From a virus: a stretch of 32,800 bases of DNA. The notes beneath the pieces are model-generated. The model saw nothing but the letters and a program-made list of their open reading frames with translations, ran no database searches and was not told the origin of the DNA. Positions 20,378 to 29,656 of the stretch are shown in pieces (position 1 is the first letter of the stretch; each line of letters begins with the position of its first letter). Position numbers and translations under genes: made by a program. The stretch is from the UHGV virus genome UHGV-0201141; one strand, 5' to 3'.

Positions 20378-21790
20378 GTGGCAACTTGGCAACAGAGCAT
20401 CAACTCCGGTGGTTTTCTGGCTGGAATTGGTGCGCAAAATGAGAATGCGCCAAAGGCGAGTGATGTAAATGAGACACTGGCTTACATTCGTCAGAATAAT
20501 GAGGATGCCAGGCTTGGTCGCAACAATATCGGTCTGCAGGCTCTGCAGGGAATAACAAGCACAATGCAAGGATTGCAGCAATATGATCAGCAGAAGCAAG
20601 AGGCAGCATTCAGAAAGGATTATGCTTCTGCTATTCAATCAGGTGATCGACAGCAGGTGCGAGATTTGATGACCAAATATCCTGGTCAATTAGAGAAGAT
20701 TCAGTCTGGCATGAAGTGGGCAGACGAAGACCAGCGCAATTCTATCGGCACCTTAGCGGCTGGCGCACGCCTTGCGGCCTCGTCTCCAGAAGCAATGCAA
20801 TCATGGCTGCAAAACAACGCCAATGAGCTGGCGCGCGTCGGTGTTGACCCTAATAACGTTGCTCAGATGTATCAGCAGAATCCTTCAGGATTTGGTGAGT
20901 TTGTTGATCACCTTGGAATGGCTGCTCTTGGTCCGATTGACTACTTCAATGTTCAGGACAAGATGGCTGGTCGTGAGATTGACCGAGGCAGGCTGGCAGA
21001 GACAATCCGCAGCAATCAGGCTGGTGAAGCACTTCAGGCGAGAGGGCAAAACCTTTCCTATCAGTCAGCAATGACTGGGCACAATATCGCAGCACAACGC
21101 TTGGCTCTGGATCAGCAAGAGTTCGGGTTTAAGATGCAGCAAGCGCAGGAAAAGGCTCAGCAGTTGATTAGTGAAGCACCTAAGCTGTCAGTAAACATGG
21201 AAAAAGGCATCGAGACGGCCGTAAACAATGCTACAGCATCATCAAACTCAGCCAATTCTATGAGTGCGCTTGCTCAACAGTTCAGAGCAGAAAAACCAAC
21301 GACAGGTTTGTTCGGTAACGCACAGAACATGTTCGCAAAACTTACCGGAAGCGATACGACATTGCGTGATTTGCGCATTCGCCAAAATGCCCTTGTTAAC
21401 AGTCAGGTTCTTAAATTCCTACCTCCCGGCCCAGCAACGGATAAAGACGTTGAGATCGTTCGGCAGGGTGCGCCAACTGACATGGATAATCCTGAGACGG
21501 TCGCAAGATGGCTTGATGCGATGGCAAACCTTGAGCGACGAAACGCGCAGTTTAATGAGTTTAAAGCCGAGTGGATGAGCGCGAATGGCAACCCAGGACA
21601 ATCGCGCAATGGCGGTCAGATATTGGGGTTGGATGTTAAAAAAGGTGAATCATTGGGGAGTGCCGTTAAGCGGTATATGTCAATGAATACTGACGCAGCG
21701 CCAGCACAAGATTCGACTCCTTCAGGAGAACCACGGAATCAGGTTGGATCATATACCTCAAAATCAGGCATTCAATTTACGGTGGAATGA
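20378..21790 (+). CDS. Ejection protein (P22 gp20-like)
   Basis: 470 aa; position; GTG start with GGAGGTG RBS. Confidence 0.6.
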
Positions 21791-23628
21791 TGAAAGTAAC
21801 TGCAAACGGTAAGACATTTACCTTTCCTGATGGTACGAGCACCGAAGATATTGGCACCGCCATTGATGAGTATTTTGCTGGTCAGGCTGTTCAGCAACAA
21901 ACAGTTAATCAGGCCAATAATGCACCAACACGGGACGAACCATCATTGATGCAACAAGCTGGCGATTGGCTCACTGGTGGTCAAAGTGCAGGGCAAATTG
22001 CAGAACAGGCTGGTCGTGGTCTGGTAAACATACCATTTGACGTATTGCAGGGTGGCGCAAGTCTGATTAATGCAATCAGTCAGGGGCTTGGTGGGCCAAA
22101 AGTTTTAGATGATGTTTATCGTCCAGTAGACAAACCGACAGACCCATACGCACAAGCCGGTGAAACAATTGGTGGGTATTTAGTTCCAGGAGTTGGAACG
22201 GCAGGAAGCATGGCTATTGGATCGCTGGCAGAGGCCGCAAATCAGAAAGGCGATTTCGCACAAAATGCAGCCAAAAATGCCGGAGTTAACCTTGCCGCTC
22301 AGGGGGTTCTTTCCGCAGCAGCAAAGGGAATAGGGCGTGGAATAACGGCTATAAAAGGTGATATTGCGCCAGAGGTGGCGAAGAAAATTGCCACCTCAGA
22401 ATCGATGGGCGTGACACCAATGACATCTGATGTTATCCCGCCGAAAAATGCTTTCACTCGCGGCCTTACTCAGGACGCCGAGGGGGCTTTGCTCGGGACA
22501 GGCTCAAAGCGAGCGGAGCAATATGCAACGCGTAGTAAGCTGGTAAGCAATTATTTTGACCGTTTTGGTGAGTACAACCCTGATGATGTGGTGAAATCTC
22601 TGACCACCACGTTAAGGGGGCGGAAGGATGCTGCTGGCGCTGTTATCAATGACGTCACCAATAAAATGGGTAATGCCGCAGTTGATACCACAAATACCAT
22701 GAATGCTCTGAATACAGCGATCGCAAGACAGGAACGGCTTGGGACGTCTGCCAATCAAAGCCTGCTTACATCCTTGCGTAACCTACGTGAAGAATTAGCA
22801 AACCCTGCAACTGATTTGGATGTTACGTTTGATCTCTTGCGTCAGCACAGAACAGCATTTAGATCTAATGTTCAGGGAGATGCTATGGTCTTCCCCAACC
22901 AGGCAAAAGCAGCTACCAATATGGTAGAGAATGCAATGTCAAAAGACCTTCGTAACGCAGTTGCTAAAAACCTCGGTGCATCAGACGCAGCAAAATACCT
23001 TAAAGCAAATTCCGATTATGCAAACGTTTATAATAAGGTGCTTAATAAAAACATTGCCAACAAGCTCAACAAGGCAAGCAGTGAAGCCAGTCCTGAACTT
23101 ATAAATACCGTTGTATTAAGCAGAAAACCATCTGACGTGAAACGAATCTGGAGCGCACTGGATGATAAGGGGAAAGATGCTATGCGTGCAGCTTACGTCA
23201 GCAAAATAGCGGAAAAGGCCGGGGACTCTCCAGCCAAGTTCATCACTGAAGTTAATAAGCTGAAATCTCAGTCAGGCGGTGAAATTTACAACACTATTTT
23301 TTCTGGAAAGCACATGAAAGAGCTTGATGCTCTTCATGAAGTTCTACAGCAAACAGCAAGGTCAGACACCGCAAATGTAGTAACTCAGACGGGGCAATCG
23401 CAAGCCAACAGGATAAGGACGATTGGCGCAACTGCGACCCTTGGCGTATCAATGGGGCTTGAGGCTGGTTTTGGTGCAATGATGCGCTTGTATGAGTCCA
23501 AAGCAGCAAGGAATATGCTTCTTCGTTTGGCAAACACCAAAGCAGGAACACCAGCCTATGAAAGAGCGATAAATAACGCTGCGAATGCCATCAGACCGCT
23601 GTTTGCTACTGAGGCAACACAGCAGTAA
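21787..23628 (+). CDS. Ejection protein (P22 gp16-like)
   Basis: 613 aa; position; ATGATGA overlap with upstream gene. Confidence 0.6.
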
Positions 23629-23652
23629 CGTATGGGAAATTGGATTCAATCG

Positions 23653-24042
23653 CTAACATTTTCTTTTTACTTTTCCAACAAAAGCTTTGGTTGAATCCAT
23701 ATTTCCATAACCGGAAATGGTTTTTGACATTAAAACTGTTCCAGTAGGATGTATTACCCATGAGTCGATAACGCGTTGAGTTTCGCCATTCGCGCCGATT
23801 CCTATGATGGAGTTTTTAGACAATGCTTTGTAAGCCATGCCGCCCGCATCTGTCCCAGAATATGTGATGCTGGCATCTTCACCGTTTGTCTTAATGATGA
23901 ATGTTCCACTAAAACCATCTTCTTCCGGATGGAAATTATTTCGTTCTGAATAGCTTATTCCGCGCATATCTCCAACGACCCAGCACTCTGCTGTAGCCCC
24001 AAAAGATATGAATAAGAACATAGCAGTAAGAAATTGCTTCAC
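23653..24042 (-). CDS. Small secreted protein of unknown function (signal peptide, two Cys)
   Basis: GTG start at 24042 with AAGGAGG RBS 5 nt upstream; N-terminus MKQFLTAMFLFISFGATA then E, a typical Sec signal peptide. Confidence 0.6.
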   Translation of the reverse strand: MKQFLTAMFLFISFGATAECWVVGDMRGISYSERNNFHPEEDGFSGTFIIKTNGEDASITYSGTDAGGMAYKALSKNSIIGIGANGETQRVIDSWVIHPTGTVLMSKTISGYGNMDSTKAFVGKVKRKC

Positions 24043-24102
24043 GCCAACCTCCTTAGTTTTGAGCAGGATACCAGATGATAATGTGTCGCTTCCTAAAGGA
24101 TA

Positions 24103-24744
24103 TCAAAGCAACGGGATTTCAAGGTAAACTGCGGTTGCCAAAATACTAACATCTTCATTTCTAACAAGAATATTAGGATACATTGGGTTTAGGGATACTA
24201 GGTTTGTCTCTATTTCACCAATGTAAACCTGTTTGAAGCTCAATATTTGCTCTTTATCCAATGATGCTATTACATAATCTTTGCTTTTAGCTTTTACTAG
24301 AGGGCTGAACGTGACAACCGATCCTCTGGGAAAGCTAATACCTGAACTTGTAGTCATAGCTTCACCTTCAATAGTCAATGCAAATGCAGAGTCACCAACA
24401 TTGTATATTGCCGGATGAAATCTAGACGATGAATGTTCACCTGTGTTTAGGTAATGCATAACTTCATCTAGTTTGAGGATTGGTATTTGCTTTACCAGAA
24501 CGTCAGGCATGACGTTTTTTGTTCCCGGACCCTGACCTTCACCCAGAGCTAACCACTCAGCTGTAGTACCTAATGCGTTGGCTAATGCCTGCAATACCCG
24601 AAGCCGTGGTTTAGCCTCACCACCCTCGTATGCTGCTATTTGACGTTGAACAACACCAGCTAATTTTGACAACTGCGCCTGCGTCATACCCCTGGACTGT
24701 CTTGCCAGAGATACTCTTGATGGGAATTGATCGTCAAAATTCAT
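24103..24744 (-). CDS. CI-like repressor (HTH_XRE N-domain plus S24/LexA-like C-domain, apparently non-cleavable)
   Basis: N-terminal HTH (MTQAQLSKLAGVVQRQIAAYEGG); C-terminal segment DSAFALTIEGEAM...SFPRG...FKQV...LNPMYPNI parallels the lambda CI C-domain as I recall it, but with Ala where the catalytic Ser would be. Confidence 0.75.
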   Translation of the reverse strand: MNFDDQFPSRVSLARQSRGMTQAQLSKLAGVVQRQIAAYEGGEAKPRLRVLQALANALGTTAEWLALGEGQGPGTKNVMPDVLVKQIPILKLDEVMHYLNTGEHSSSRFHPAIYNVGDSAFALTIEGEAMTTSSGISFPRGSVVTFSPLVKAKSKDYVIASLDKEQILSFKQVYIGEIETNLVSLNPMYPNILVRNEDVSILATAVYLEIPLL

Positions 24745-24765
24745 TAGTTCACCATAAAAAATTCA

Positions 24766-24794
24766 TTGACTCATACTGAGTGTGAGTGAATAAT
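24766..24794 (+). promoter_or_regulatory. Candidate sigma70 promoter for the arc-like/antirepressor operon, with palindromic operator-like site
   Basis: -35 TTGACT (24766-24771), 17-bp spacer, -10 AATAAT (24789-24794); palindrome ACTCA-TAC-TGAGT at 24769-24781 overlaps the -35. Confidence 0.5.
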
Positions 24795-24843
24795 CAAACT
24801 ACAAAAAGTGAGATTATGAGTTTTTTAAAAACAGGAGTGCATA

Positions 24844-25017
24844 ATGACTGAAAAGATATCTTCCATCAAGCCGCGTCAGGTTCGTTTTACAGAAAAGGTT
24901 GATTCACATATCCGCGAATCAGCAAAAAGATGCCATAGGTCAATTCAGGCAGAGATAGCTTATCGAATGGAGTTATTGATGAAACTTGAGGCAAAGGGCG
25001 ATGTTGTCATCCAATAA
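24844..25017 (+). CDS. Arc-like ribbon-helix-helix protein (57 aa, below track cutoff)
   Basis: ATG at 24844 with AGGAG RBS; small basic product with predicted N-terminal strand then helices, resembling Arc/Mnt-type RHH repressors; directly upstream of the antirepressor. Confidence 0.55.
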   Translation: MTEKISSIKPRQVRFTEKVDSHIRESAKRCHRSIQAEIAYRMELLMKLEAKGDVVIQ

Positions 25018-25090
25018 AAATAGTGAAGCCCGGCAGTGCGCGAACACAAACCGGGCCTCTATGTCAGTAACCGTATGCAAGGAAACTAAC

Positions 25091-25717
25091 ATGAATATTG
25101 TAGCAAAATCAGATTACAACTTCCACGGAGTTGAGTTGGTGCCCACCCGTGATATGCATGGTGTTTGGTTTACGTCATCTAATATTGCATCTGCACTTAA
25201 ATATGCAAATAGCCGTGCAGTAACAATGATTTATAACAAGTATAGCGATGAGTTTAGCACCGGAATGACTCAGGTACTCGAAGTGAGTACCTCAGGAAAT
25301 TATCGCAAAAAAGTGCGAGTTTTCTCACTACGCGGTGCCCACCTAATCGCGATGTTTGCTCGCACTCCGGTAGCAAAAGAGTTCCGCCGCTGGGTGCTGG
25401 ATATTTTGGATCGGCAGGCAGAATGCTCACCGATTGCAAAACAGTTTACTGACGAAGAACTGGTTAATCTCTGCTACTTACAATTGTGGATGGAGAAGAG
25501 TCAACAAATGTGCAAACACATCTACCCAGGAATGAAGCAAATTTGTTCTGAGCTTTCAGGAAGGATTTACGATATCGCATATGAGACTCGCTATATGTCA
25601 GAAGAAACCAAGAAATCACTTCTTCGTGAAATGAAGAATCTTGATACCAACAATTTTGTCGTAAAGAACGCTCAGCCAATGCTGGCAAAACTGCGCGGCG
25701 AGGAATGGATTCATTGA
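25091..25717 (+). CDS. Antirepressor, Bro-N domain family
   Basis: N-terminus MNIVAKSDYNFHGVELVPTRDMHGVWFTSSNIASALKY fits the Bro-N pattern; AAGGA RBS; the track start at 24986 overlaps the arc-like gene and is rejected. Confidence 0.65.
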   Translation: MNIVAKSDYNFHGVELVPTRDMHGVWFTSSNIASALKYANSRAVTMIYNKYSDEFSTGMTQVLEVSTSGNYRKKVRVFSLRGAHLIAMFARTPVAKEFRRWVLDILDRQAECSPIAKQFTDEELVNLCYLQLWMEKSQQMCKHIYPGMKQICSELSGRIYDIAYETRYMSEETKKSLLREMKNLDTNNFVVKNAQPMLAKLRGEEWIH

Positions 25718-25805
25718 TTGGTGCGCCGGACGGCGCAAAAAGAAAACCGCCAGTGTGCTGCTGGCGGCCTATGTCACACCCTTACTACCACATAAGGAAT
25801 GCCTA

Positions 25806-26534
25806 ATGACTTTTAAGAATGTAGCAAACATCGGATCCGTTGTCACGGATAAAACCATTGACAGCCAGCGCCTTCTTGAGATGGTAAATCAGGCTCGTAG
25901 ACAGTGCGGTGAGCCGGAGGTTCGTAATAACAAATTCATCGAGAAAATTGAAGATGAATTGGATGGAGAGCACTACACAAAAAGTGTAGTGCAAAAAGCG
26001 AACAAAACTTCGATGGTTATCATTGAGATGTCAATCAAGCAAGCATTGCGAGTTGCCGCTCGCGAGTCAAAAGCCGTTCGCCGCTCACTGGTAGACCAAC
26101 TTGAAAGTATGCAAGAAGCGCACATTAAAAGCGGTAAATCAGCGAGTGGACTTGTTGAGTATCGTCAAGCGCGAACATTGAAAATGACGGTTGAAGCTGT
26201 TACCAATCTGTTCGATCTGATGCCAAATCTTGCGCCTGAGGCAAAGCAGACAGCGGCAGCAAGTATAATCAACCCGCTCGTTGGTTTTAATGCAATACCT
26301 CTTCCGGCAATAGAAGAGCATTACTACTCAGCAGGGGAGGTTGCAGAGCAGCTTGGAGTAACGGCCAACAAGATTGGTCGCATTGCTAACGCAAACAACC
26401 TCAAAACTGAGCAGTACGGGAAGTTCTTCCTGGATAAATCGGCGCATTCCAGCAAACAGGTAGAGGCGTTCCGTTACAATTCTGAAGGCGTTAAAGCACT
26501 ACAACACCTACTACATGGCTCAAATGTGGCGTAA
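25806..26534 (+). CDS. Hypothetical protein (possible antirepressor-associated or DNA-binding protein)
   Basis: ATG at 25806 with AAGGA RBS; track start at 25755 is a GTG inside a hairpin; last gene of the + strand operon before a terminator. Confidence 0.5.
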   Translation: MTFKNVANIGSVVTDKTIDSQRLLEMVNQARRQCGEPEVRNNKFIEKIEDELDGEHYTKSVVQKANKTSMVIIEMSIKQALRVAARESKAVRRSLVDQLESMQEAHIKSGKSASGLVEYRQARTLKMTVEAVTNLFDLMPNLAPEAKQTAAASIINPLVGFNAIPLPAIEEHYYSAGEVAEQLGVTANKIGRIANANNLKTEQYGKFFLDKSAHSSKQVEAFRYNSEGVKALQHLLHGSNVA

Positions 26535-26553
26535 CATTTTATAATGAAAACTA

Positions 26554-26577
26554 AACCCGCTTAATCGCGGGTTTTTT
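26554..26577. terminator. Terminator hairpin between convergent genes
   Basis: Stem AACCCGC / GCGGGTT followed by TTTTTT on the + strand; overlaps the stop codon of the mnt-like gene. Confidence 0.6.
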
Positions 26578-26818
26578 CTTTCCTTAGAATTTCAGCCGCA
26601 ACTTCTTTTACTCGTTCCGAGATTAATGAGGCCAGCCTCTCTTCTTCATCACGATACCCGCTTACAGGTGATGGTTTGGAGAGCGATTCTTCCATCGTAG
26701 CCACAATTTCGGAATTGATAGACCTGTTATTCATTTTTGCACGTTGCTTAATCTTGGCGTGCAACTCGTGCGTAAGCCTCAAGTGGAACTGCGCCTCATC
26801 GTATTTGCTGTACATCAT
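26561..26818 (-). CDS. mnt: Mnt-like ribbon-helix-helix repressor
   Basis: 85-aa product with F.LR...E...K.K.RA..N.RS.NSE...LSKPSPVSGYR...ERLA pattern resembling P22 Mnt as I recall it; the 217-aa track ORF is an over-extension across the tailspike start. Confidence 0.7.
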   Translation of the reverse strand: MMYSKYDEAQFHLRLTHELHAKIKQRAKMNNRSINSEIVATMEESLSKPSPVSGYRDEEERLASLISERVKEVAAEILRKEKTRD

Positions 26819-26950
26819 CAATGCCTCACCAAATGGGTGGAATGGCATCGTAAAACCTACTGTACAAATCAACAATCGTACCGTTTCGGTATGCAACAAA
26901 TACCAACCGTAGCCATGCTGCGGCGATTCCTTGTATCTGGAGCAAATTAA

Positions 26951-29656
26951 ATGACAGACATTACAGCCAATGTTGTAGTGAGCATGCCTTCGCAACTCTT
27001 CACTATGGCGCGTTCTTTTAAAGCCGTAGCTAATGGCAAAATTTATATCGGTAAAATTGACACTGACCCGGTAAATCCTGAAAACCAGATTCAGGTTTAT
27101 GTAGAGAACGAAGACGGTTCTCACATTCCTGTTTCGCAACCAATCATCATTAACGCTGCTGGTTATCCGGTATATAACGGACAGATTTCCAAATTCGTTA
27201 CCGTGCAAGGCCATTCTATGGCTGTTTATGATGCATATGGTGCTAAGCAGTTCTATTTTCCGAATGTGCTGAAGTATGACCCAGATCAGTTTGGCCCAGA
27301 CTTCAAAGAGCAGTTATCTCAATCAGGAGCATACATTAATGATGATTCAAAAGGTGATGCATTAATTGGGGTAAGGCAGCCATTTACCGGGGCTGTAACT
27401 ATAACTCAGCATGAAAACAATGCTCTTTTCTTAAATGTAAAACAATTTGGAGCAATTGGGGATGGGAAATATCATCCATTATCTGAGTGGTTTTCTTCAA
27501 TTTCTGAAGCAAAATCCTTATATCCTTTTGTTGACTCATTATCTCAGTCAATAGACTGGGCCGCGTGGCAAGCTGCCCTTAACACAGGAAAGGTTATTTA
27601 TGGTACTGATAATGCGTATGTAATAACGGATACGTTAACACCTGTTTCTGGTGGTGGGATAATTTGTCTTGGTGTGGGCAAATGGGTCTCAGGATATACT
27701 GCAACATTTGCTCCTGATATTACCACAGGGACCACATTCCTGATGTACGGTGTAGGAAATAAAAAATATACTGTAGATTGTGTTTCTAATATGGATGTTA
27801 GTGGTGGTGTGGTTTCTAATCCATCTTCCGAAGACCCGTATACAACAACGGCACCTGCGTCATCATATGATTTATTGGATTTTACTAACGGTGATGCTAA
27901 TGGGGCTACAAGAGCCACGCTTAAACCATTCTCTGCCGCAATATTGATGCCAGAGACAGGATGTGTTCGCCTTGAGAACTTTCGTATTGTTCCATATTTC
28001 AATGGGCTGGATGGTTATAAAGACATTGCAAATACCGGTCTTGGCGATGAGTGGGATGTAGGTATTTGGTCACGTGCGTCTTTTGGCAATGAATACCGCA
28101 ATTTGCAGGTGGTTGGATACTGGCGCAAGACGGCACTTTTAAAAACGAACATTCCTGTATCTGGCACGCTGGCCGCTCAGGGCGAGGATGAAAACTATTA
28201 TCACTGTAGATTCCAGGGATTCAAGGGTGTTTCGATCCGCGCCCATGATGTATTCCGAATTACAGCGGTAACGTCCAGCACTATCGAAATTCCATGGTCA
28301 GCAAGCCACACCTTCGAAACGTCCGGGGTTTTAAGATCTGTAGGCAGGAATTTCACTTATTCAGGATTATCCGTATCCGGTGATAAGTTAGTATTTACTG
28401 GAGTGTCTAACGCTTCTGAGGCAACAGTAGGTTCTACTATACGGCGAAATGACATAGATAACTTTGGTATGGCGGGAACGCAATTTTTCGATTGCTACAT
28501 TACCAGCCTGTATCACCACACACATCTGCTTGCCACATCGCAATACCTGTCTCAACCATTCAGCCGACCATCAGAGTGTATGGAGGTTTCAGGGGAACCA
28601 GTTCGCGGTGTACAGGTACATGCAGGAACCATTCAGGGATGGGATGATGTTCTTATTCATCTGCATGACTGTGGAAATATGAACTTTTACAGTACATATT
28701 TCGAAAGCCAGCAAGCATATGTAACTATAAATGGTGGTAATGCTATTGGTTATGGAGCACGTATGATAGCTTCCCGGCAATCAACAAGCTCATTACCATA
28801 TGCAGCAGGGAATACACGAGTGCTTAGAATGGTCGGGTGCTCTGAAGGCAATGGCGTTGACTGGGGTCCTGTATTTAACAACTATACAGGAGGAAGATAT
28901 AATTCTGGAGACGGTGTATTTAACCCCCGCGATGCATTTATAGACCATAAATCTCTTCCTGAGCAGTCAGGAGGTGAGTCAAGACTCGTATCACAAAAAG
29001 GAAATGCCAGAGTAGTATGTGGTGTTGGTAAAACTGTACTGCTTGGACCAACGTCAGGAGATTGTAATTTACAGAGTAATACCGGAAGTTTAAATATTAG
29101 AAGTGGGATAAGAGTAAGAGTCGGTCACGCTGATGGAACAGACTGGTGGTTGGCAGATGCTAATAAAATAGCTCCTGTTGATGATAATGTTAAAGCTATT
29201 GGACAGCCATCAAACAGATGCTCTGTTATCTATGCAGGAACCGGGTCAATCAATACATCAGATGAAACTCTTAAAACAAGATATGATATTCTTAATGCAG
29301 AGCGTGATGCCGCTATTGAAATAAAGTCAGTCATCTATAAATTTAAATTTAATGACTCAATTAATCACAAAGGAATTGAGTCGTCCAGGTATCATTTTGG
29401 CGTTGGCGCTCAAACCGTAGGGGATATTCTTAGAAAGCATGGTTTAAATCCTGAGCAATATGCTTTTTGGTGTTACGATGAATGGCCTGACGTATGGGAT
29501 GAAGAGGTGATAACTGAAGAGAGCACAGATCCTGATACAGGTGAGAAAATTTATTCTCAATATAAAACAGGAGATATGATTCTTGTAAAAAAAGCAGGAG
29601 GACGCTACGGAATTCGTTATGACGAATTGGCTATGTTTATATTAATGGCAATGTAG
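26951..29656 (+). CDS. Tailspike: P22-type head-binding N-domain, divergent receptor-binding domain, C-terminal intramolecular chaperone (peptidase S74-like)
   Basis: N-terminus [11 protein letters not shown]...[33 protein letters not shown]...LKYDPDQ matches the P22 gp9 N-domain; the last ~130 aa carry S74-chaperone-like motifs (TSDETLK...[11 protein letters not shown]). Confidence 0.8.

Follow-up and report, generated by a model that had tools for sequence, protein, structure and literature searches.

A CI-like repressor with a catalytically dead S24 domain, encoded divergently from the antirepressor operon of a mobile phage cassette

The 32,800-nucleotide stretch of DNA analyzed here (UHGV virus genome UHGV-0201141; 'the window' throughout) is a P22-like genome. 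Between the open reading frame (ORF) for a gene-16-type ejection protein (21787–23628) and that for the tailspike (26951–29656) lies an 'ant moron', in which the gene for a CI-like repressor (24103–24744, minus strand; 213 amino acids, ATG start) is separated by an intergenic gap of 99 bp from a divergent operon. The first gene of this operon encodes a 57-residue Arc-like ribbon-helix-helix (RHH) protein (24844–25017, plus strand; phrog_10182). It is followed by an antirepressor gene (25091–25717, plus strand), whose product carries the Pfam domains Bro-N and P22_AR_C and matches phrog_245 (anti-repressor Ant, E = 4e-52), and by a second antirepressor-like gene (25806–26534, plus strand), which from residue 18 onwards matches phrog_1726 (anti-repressor) with E = 9e-101. 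An earlier note on this DNA had predicted that the CI-like protein is non-inducible and suggested that it may repress the antirepressor, and the comparative evidence presented here supports that proposal.

The CI-like protein comprises two domains recognized by Pfam: an HTH_3 DNA-binding domain of the 434/P22 type (24550–24705, minus strand; residues 14–65, E = 9e-13) and a Peptidase_S24-like domain (24127–24423, minus strand; residues 108–206, PF00717, E = 1.3e-12). A phmmer search against all PDB chains aligned residues 3–63 of a 434 repressor chain (1per) with residues 8–69 of the query (E = 4e-6), also retrieved the N-terminal domain of P22 C2, and matched the C-terminal domain (CTD) of lambda CI (2ho0, 3bdn, 1kca and 1f39; E = 1e-7 to 6e-6). 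The helix-turn-helix (HTH) region is closest to the 434 and P22 C2 type, with Q33-R34-Q35-I36-A37-A38 as its recognition helix. In an AlphaFold2 model built from 22 sequences (mean pLDDT 84.9), this region forms the five helices of an HTH_3 domain (residues 7–17, 22–29, 33–40, 48–58 and 62–67). The best fold match of the model in the PDB is full-length lambda repressor (3bdn, E = 2e-11); the lambda CTD (1f39) matches with a TM-score of 0.84 and a root mean squared deviation of 2.1 Å, and LexA and UmuD' rank next after lambda repressor. Crystal structures of non-cleavable LexA mutants (S119A, G85D) are among the fold matches (1jhh, 1jhf). In an NCBIfam scan, no model scored above its cut-off for this protein, and a PADLOC scan found no defence system, matching the repressor only in its HTH region (RmrA, capH) and its neighbours not at all.

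Alignment with lambda CI placed the residues required for self-cleavage, and the catalytic columns agree among MAFFT alignments of lambda CI with 22, 105 or 127 relatives. Codon 129 (GCT, 24358–24360, minus strand) encodes alanine at the position of the serine nucleophile: the query motif GEAM aligns on lambda GNSM, so that A129 corresponds to S149 by phmmer, by MAFFT and by fold comparison. The surrounding GxxM frame is conserved, with G127 nearly invariant and M130 invariant. Codon 171 (AAA, 24232–24234, minus strand) retains the lysine general base, SFKQV aligning on TFKKL and K171 on lambda K192 in both phmmer and MAFFT alignments. By the alignments and the model, codons 95–96 (24457–24462, minus strand) place Val-Met where lambda CI has its scissile Ala111-Gly112 bond (IPILKLDEVMHY vs YPVFSHVQAGMF in the MAFFT alignment with lambda CI and relatives), and the counterpart of the cleavage loop, residues 92–101, is predicted to be helical. 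Neither Ala-Gly nor Cys-Gly occurs in the linker, the sole instance in the whole protein being A29-G30, inside the turn of the HTH. Ser119 (GDSA), whose placement at the catalytic position would, according to the earlier note, have counted against it, aligns with a non-catalytic serine of lambda SDSAF. Ala129 is genuine; a sequencing error is excluded by the recurrence of the same protein in many contigs and by relatives that encode this alanine by GCA. The four structural statements of that note (a CI-like fold, Ser replaced by Ala at residue 129, Lys171 kept, no Ala-Gly at the cleavage position) are all borne out, with alignment columns and structural model in agreement on the Ser-to-Ala change. 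Two defining features of the self-cleaving family are thus missing, and the S24 fold and the lysine are present. Because both the nucleophile and the scissile bond are absent, the CI-like repressor should be insensitive to RecA*, and is predicted to be unable to perform RecA-stimulated self-cleavage.

The dead active site that the earlier note singled out is present in this gene but is not peculiar to it: the whole ant-linked family is characterized by absence of the Ala-Gly site, the canonical dipeptide being kept in only 2 of 105 unique members (P0016, IMAG; P0048, VQAG). These two keep Ala-Gly, Ser and Lys together, and may work like LexA-controlled antirepressor modules. Many other members have remnants of the VQA-x type (VQAR, VQAS, VQSR) at the cleavage position. 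The serine is missing in 31 of the 105 members and the lysine in 29, each with about nine changes on a neighbour-joining tree, and dyad variants include Ala+Lys, Ala+Arg, Gly+Val and Asp. Within the clade of the window protein, four lineages have Ala (GCT or GCA), and a protein of 81% identity (P0003) that has Ser (TCT) is nested among them by its non-synonymous divergence (dN), still with Val-Met at the cleavage position. Serine thus toggles within the closest clade as if neutral, and the dead S24 domain of the window protein appears to be the end state of a loss across the family, not an oddity of one gene.

Loss of catalysis has not been accompanied by decay. A relative (P0002) whose protein is 92% identical to that of the window is only 76% identical in DNA, and 43% at third codon positions; synonymous sites are therefore saturated and the protein is not decaying, with a dN of 0.06 for the full protein and of 0.086 for its S24 domain. 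Most pairwise synonymous divergences (dS) were saturated and not computable by the Nei-Gojobori method, so that third-position identity and the few computable pairs were used; for the pairs with estimable dS, dN/dS is approximately 0.11 in the CTD. Across 22 sequences with identities down to 37%, 33 positions are invariant and 23 nearly so. Purifying selection on the catalytically dead S24 domain is strong.

The identical protein is encoded by Escherichia coli phage JEP4 (Lederbergvirus) and by 23 further IMG/VR contigs, and three more IMG/VR contigs encode proteins with at most one or two residue differences. The gene and its upstream region are found at 98.7–99.6% DNA identity in 28 of 5426 complete E. 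coli genomes, and the 99% cluster (n = 62 sequences) takes in Salmonella. Hosts of the family comprise Escherichia, Salmonella, Klebsiella, Leclercia, Yersinia, Providencia, Morganella, Xenorhabdus and Tatumella; a scan of genome contigs with one strict peptide pattern returned 10 loci and is informative for host range only. In JEP4 (MT740315.1, 14133–14702) the gene is annotated as 'repressor protein C2', from a start that leaves out the first 24 codons, the conserved MNFDD beginning among them, and so gives 570 nt instead of 642 nt, and RefSeq E. coli entries label it as 'helix-turn-helix domain-containing protein' or 'LexA family transcriptional regulator'. The labels 'repressor protein C2' and 'LexA family' could mislead predictions of prophage inducibility and immunity group. 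Many family members (among them P0012–P0021 and L046–L070) are longer, at 256–288 amino acids, and carry an extension of about 50–70 residues after the S24 domain, absent from the window protein. The extension ends in a conserved, helical, leucine-rich segment (for example, ERLxxLExKLDxLLxLL), and may be an extra oligomerization element.

The divergence of the repressor gene from the Arc-like/antirepressor operon, noted previously from the ORF layout of the window, proved to be a constant of the family: in 81 of 81 related loci, a divergent Arc-like gene of about 57 codons lies approximately 100 bp away and is followed by an antirepressor gene. These loci consist of 8 contexts found by exact protein look-up (homologues from 92% to 42% identity), all with a divergent gene for 57–67 amino acids and then a gene with an antirepressor domain, and 73 IMG/VR loci, all with a divergent ORF for about 57 amino acids some 100 bp upstream. 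Among 47 non-redundant first large ORFs (that of the window included), the domains found were Bro-N (34), P22_AR_C (17), P22_AR_N (8), ANT (3), KilA-N (2) and pRha (2). The sites occupied are the tail genes of lambda-like and HK97-like siphoviruses, the ant morons of P22-like phages, or positions beside an integrase. The cassette is a mobile three-gene unit: the gene for the CI-like repressor and, divergent from it, that for the Arc-like RHH protein with one antirepressor gene, or two, behind it. It is also carried by a prophage of E. coli HS; at that locus (L086; NZ_CP185286.1, 1054303–1064050) an IS3-family element interrupts the second antirepressor-like gene, and the CI-like, RHH and first ant genes are intact.

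The JEP4 label 'C2' raises the option that the CI-like gene is the primary immunity repressor, which we rejected: JEP4, whose CI-like protein is 100% identical to that of the window, also has a canonical immC C2 with SAG, GDSM and FKK, beside cro and c1. The CI-like gene is therefore a second repressor and not the immunity repressor. Locus L008 likewise has a separate repressor with Phage_CI_repr and S24 domains.

The intergenic region contains a predicted sigma-70 promoter for the Arc-like/ant operon (P_ant; 24766–24794, plus strand; TTGACT-17-AATAAT, 10/12 matches), both hexamers of which are kept in relatives with saturated synonymous sites. Four conserved intergenic blocks were recognized: the −10 element, ATGAGTCAATG (the −35 element with its flanks), AAACTCATAATCTCAC, and the two ribosome-binding sites (RBSs). 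Block ATGAGTCAATG is invariant in 7 of 7 aligned loci and forms the right arm of a palindrome, ACTCAtacTGAGT (24769–24781), which overlaps the −35 element and spacer of P_ant and which we propose as the site bound by the CI-like repressor. Nowhere else in the 32.8-kb window does a sequence come within one mismatch of the consensus, and in some relatives the palindrome is perfect (for example, ACTCATTATGAGT or TTGACAC-N5-GTGTCAA). Across 37 loci, the operator varies with residue 33 of the HTH: Arg33 occurs with GTGTCAA in 11 of 11 cases, and other residues with GTGTCAA in 0 of 26, with about seven co-switches of residue and operator on the protein tree. By the offset of the phmmer alignment with 434 repressor, Q33 corresponds to 434 Gln28, which in the published repressor–operator structures contacts the outermost operator base. 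This covariation is the reason why the palindrome is assigned to the CI-like protein. The second conserved block, the reverse complement of AAACTCATAATCTCAC (24808–24823), covers about +8 to +23 of P_ant; an assignment of this block to the RHH protein by covariation with its β-strand type was dropped, the pattern across 40 loci not being clean. No LexA box (CTGT-N8-ACAG, at most one mismatch) was found in 24745–24843, and matches in the whole window are at chance level.

Within the operon, the Arc-like protein has a β-strand followed by a helix with the motif RSxQxEI, as in Arc (A4 alignment). Pfam gives weak matches, to ParD_like for the window protein (E = 8e-4) and also to Arc and RHH_5, Arc being matched in 8 of 37 relatives. 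A candidate sar-like antisense RNA (25012–25102, minus strand) has a hairpin with a U-run terminator and a TACAAT −10 element at 25097–25102, with a poor −35. The putative transcript, of about 70 nt (25020–25092), would carry sequence complementary to both the RBS and the start codon of ant; the hairpin region has a fold energy of −35.5 kcal/mol (z-score −5.5), and a nearly identical hairpin occurs at locus L006. An Rfam search of 23600–27000 found no sar or other small RNA, with two sub-threshold chance matches (RyhB and SymR). The ORF of the second antirepressor-like gene opens at GTG 25755, with ATG 25806 as its likely start; its product has no Pfam domain, and in DNA the gene is most similar to Klebsiella phage phiKp_30 (92.5%). 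JEP4 has a different gene, of the KilA type, at that position, which points to mosaicism inside the cassette.

Beyond the operon lies a bidirectional terminator-like hairpin (26553–26574) between it and a homologue of mnt (26561–26818, minus strand; 85 amino acids, Arc family, Pfam Arc E = 1.7e-14; 'regulatory protein mnt' in the JEP4 annotation). This gene and the ant operon are transcribed towards each other, and this gene and the tailspike gene away from each other. The intergenic region between mnt and the tailspike gene contains the palindrome GTACCGTTTCGGTAT (26878–26892), which is unique in the window, has no copy at P_ant and may be the Mnt operator; this suggests that the role of Mnt in this genome is to control not the ant operon but transcription that enters the tailspike gene. 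Locus L009 and E. coli HS have the same mnt–tailspike arrangement. On the other side, 60 bp downstream of the repressor gene and on the same strand, lies a gene for a 129-residue protein with a signal-peptide-like N-terminus (23653–24042, minus strand; phrog_2651, unknown function, no Pfam match), with a promoter-like site at 24078–24106. It is absent from JEP4, is replaced by other genes in related loci, and could be a lysogenic-conversion or exclusion moron.

We consider it probable that the CI-like protein is a dedicated, immC-independent repressor of the CI/434 type that silences the antirepressor operon of the cassette and is apparently insensitive to the SOS response. A dimer, joined by the S24-fold CTD as in lambda CI, would bind the palindrome ACTCAtacTGAGT and occlude the −35 element of P_ant, so that the operon would remain silent in the lysogen, which is the job of Mnt in P22. 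Such a lock on the antirepressor would not respond to SOS, and induction would be left to the canonical, cleavable C2; nor would SOS induce Ant, given that P_ant lacks a LexA box. Synthesis of Ant would be confined to the period that follows infection, until the two repressors (CI-like and Arc-like), and perhaps the antisense RNA, have built up; the Arc-like protein and the candidate antisense RNA probably shut expression off after infection, in the manner of P22 Arc and sar. DNA binding at the palindrome, repression, dimerization via the dead S24 domain and the timing of Ant are all predictions from sequence. A plausible selective reason, which we infer, is that a cleavable lock on ant would drop the induction threshold below that of C2. 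We propose that the CI-like protein acts like P22 Mnt without being a homologue of Mnt. The suggestion in the earlier note of a repressor of the antirepressor in the position of mnt thus gains support from synteny, from the palindrome over the −35 element and from covariation; one amendment is needed, as a true mnt homologue is also present and Mnt is therefore not simply supplanted here by the CI-like protein.

Several observations weigh against silencing of P_ant by the CI-like protein. The Arc-like RHH protein could instead bind the −35 palindrome, covariation being the sole basis of the assignment, and the co-switches could reflect joint recombination of the N-terminal domain and the operator as one module. 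In principle, the mnt homologue 2 kb away could act on P_ant, though its likely palindrome is not copied there. Block 24808–24823 could be either a second CI-like site or an Arc-like operator. For the CI-like gene itself, a consensus scan of the minus strand of the 99-bp gap gave no convincing sigma-70 promoter, and manual inspection found a weak cAtnAT −10 element without a −35. Carried further, the view that the Arc-like RHH protein, Mnt or both are the real regulators of P_ant would have the CI-like protein act elsewhere, either on its own gene and the downstream 129-residue secreted-protein gene or on other prophages (cross-immunity, exclusion). Genes for both RHH proteins are indeed present here, P22 ant is run wholly by RHH proteins, the signal-peptide protein gene is placed just downstream on the repressor's strand, and the close half-sites, spanning 13 bp overall, would also suit an RHH tetramer. 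We nevertheless regard this arrangement as unlikely: the repressor family accompanies the RHH–ant operon in every one of the 81 loci whereas flanking genes, the 129-residue gene included, vary; the −35 element tracks the recognition-helix residue of the HTH and not the RHH type; and the window holds no other good operator match, the Mnt-type palindrome occurring only upstream of mnt and the tailspike gene.

A separate question is whether the repressor, even if it does act at P_ant, is still inactivated by a non-canonical proteolytic or SOS route, be it through S119, T131, T132, S133 or S134 at a site other than Ala-Gly, through trans cleavage by C2 or by LexA/UmuD-type domains, or through a host protease. 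Lys171 and the GxxM frame are kept, and in several relatives an Ala-Gly that is not homologous to the cleavage site closely precedes the first core strand (DAGDSA in P0004 and P0005). It also counts against a simple loss of cleavage that most relatives retain Ser and Lys despite having no Ala-Gly: in them the dyad could still act, by non-canonical cleavage. For the window protein we judge such a route to be quite unlikely, given that alanine stands at the nucleophile position in all alignments and in the fold match, that S119 falls on a non-catalytic lambda serine, that AG and CG are absent outside the HTH turn and the cleavage-loop segment is predicted to be helical, and that the turnover of Ser, Lys or both in the family fits neutrality of the dyad and not retained catalysis. 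Very unlikely, in our estimation, is that the dead domain serves as a sensing or docking surface, which either binds RecA* reversibly without being cut or is the target of antirepressors of competing phages; if this were true, P_ant would be a hub of phage–phage cross-talk, and loss of the site with retention of Ser and Lys would mark a switch from irreversible to reversible signalling instead of simple decay. Hardly credible is the idea that the gene has no present function and is merely what is left of an immunity repressor, decaying as a passenger of the moron. Its catalytic residues and cleavage site are lost and genes turn over rapidly in the ant moron (PMC2629481), but all loci have an uninterrupted ORF, dN is much lower than dS along the full protein, S24 domain included, the invariant and nearly invariant positions are numerous (33 and 23) and a DNA-contact residue co-evolves with the operator.

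No study of this protein or cassette was found in the literature, the nearest being the 2008 work on ant-moron diversity and the Gifsy antirepressor paper. Catalytically inactive S24 homologues and repressor-controlled antirepressors are already familiar, and the locus varies the theme of P22 immI (mnt/arc-ant, sar; PMC2629481). It shares with immI the site between gene-16-type ejection and tailspike genes, an Arc-like RHH gene as first cistron with an antirepressor gene (P22_AR_C/Bro-N domains) after it, and a divergent maintenance-repressor gene with an overlapping promoter region; an antisense RNA over the ant RBS is a candidate further feature in common. By contrast, the divergent repressor here is a protein of 213 residues with HTH and S24 folds rather than the 82-residue RHH protein Mnt, the mnt homologue has been moved next to the tailspike gene and faces the operon, the genes of antirepressor type number two, and the cassette also occurs outside P22-like phages, where siphoviruses resembling lambda or HK97 have it in their tail regions. 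What emerges is a three-gene cassette that hops between tail regions of Enterobacterales phages unrelated to one another. For the HS-1 ant moron of E. coli HS, Villafane et al. (2008) remarked that arc seemed to be absent and that control of the antirepressor had to differ from that in P22 (PMC2629481). The Arc-like gene and the CI-like repressor appear to supply the control thought to be missing there, which would explain how ant morons without the P22-style mnt–P_ant arrangement, including that of E. coli HS, are controlled.

The LexA-controlled modules (GfoA and GfhA of Gifsy-1/-3, Tum of 186, AntC of N15) resemble this cassette in that ant lies outside the immunity region under a repressor of the S24 family, and in that their antirepressors give cross-talk between prophages (PMC3121763). 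In those modules, however, the repressor is the cleavable host LexA, and Ant is SOS-induced and drives induction (PMC3121763), whereas the repressor described here is phage-encoded, dedicated to its cassette and apparently uncleavable, and P_ant has no LexA box. An antirepressor under a phage repressor and not LexA is known in FsoA of Fels-1 (Lemire et al. 2011, PMC3121763).

With lambda CI, P22 C2 and 434 CI (MEROPS S24) the protein has in common the two-domain architecture, the fold, the lysine general base and the GxxM frame; it differs in having Ala for Ser and Val-Met for Ala-Gly, in a loop predicted to be helical, and in not being the immC repressor. The family is graded, with few fully equipped members, many without the site only and many without the dyad, and so is suited to the study of how a self-cleaving switch becomes a plain repressor. 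The substitutions are of the same kind as those in the non-inducible laboratory mutants lambda cI ind-, LexA S119A and LexA G85D (lexA3). Unlike in these, the changes here are natural, are combined in one protein and are held by purifying selection in a whole family. The CI-like protein would thus be a natural and widespread counterpart of the laboratory ind- repressor, a CI-type protein recruited as a lock on ant that has shed its SOS trigger.

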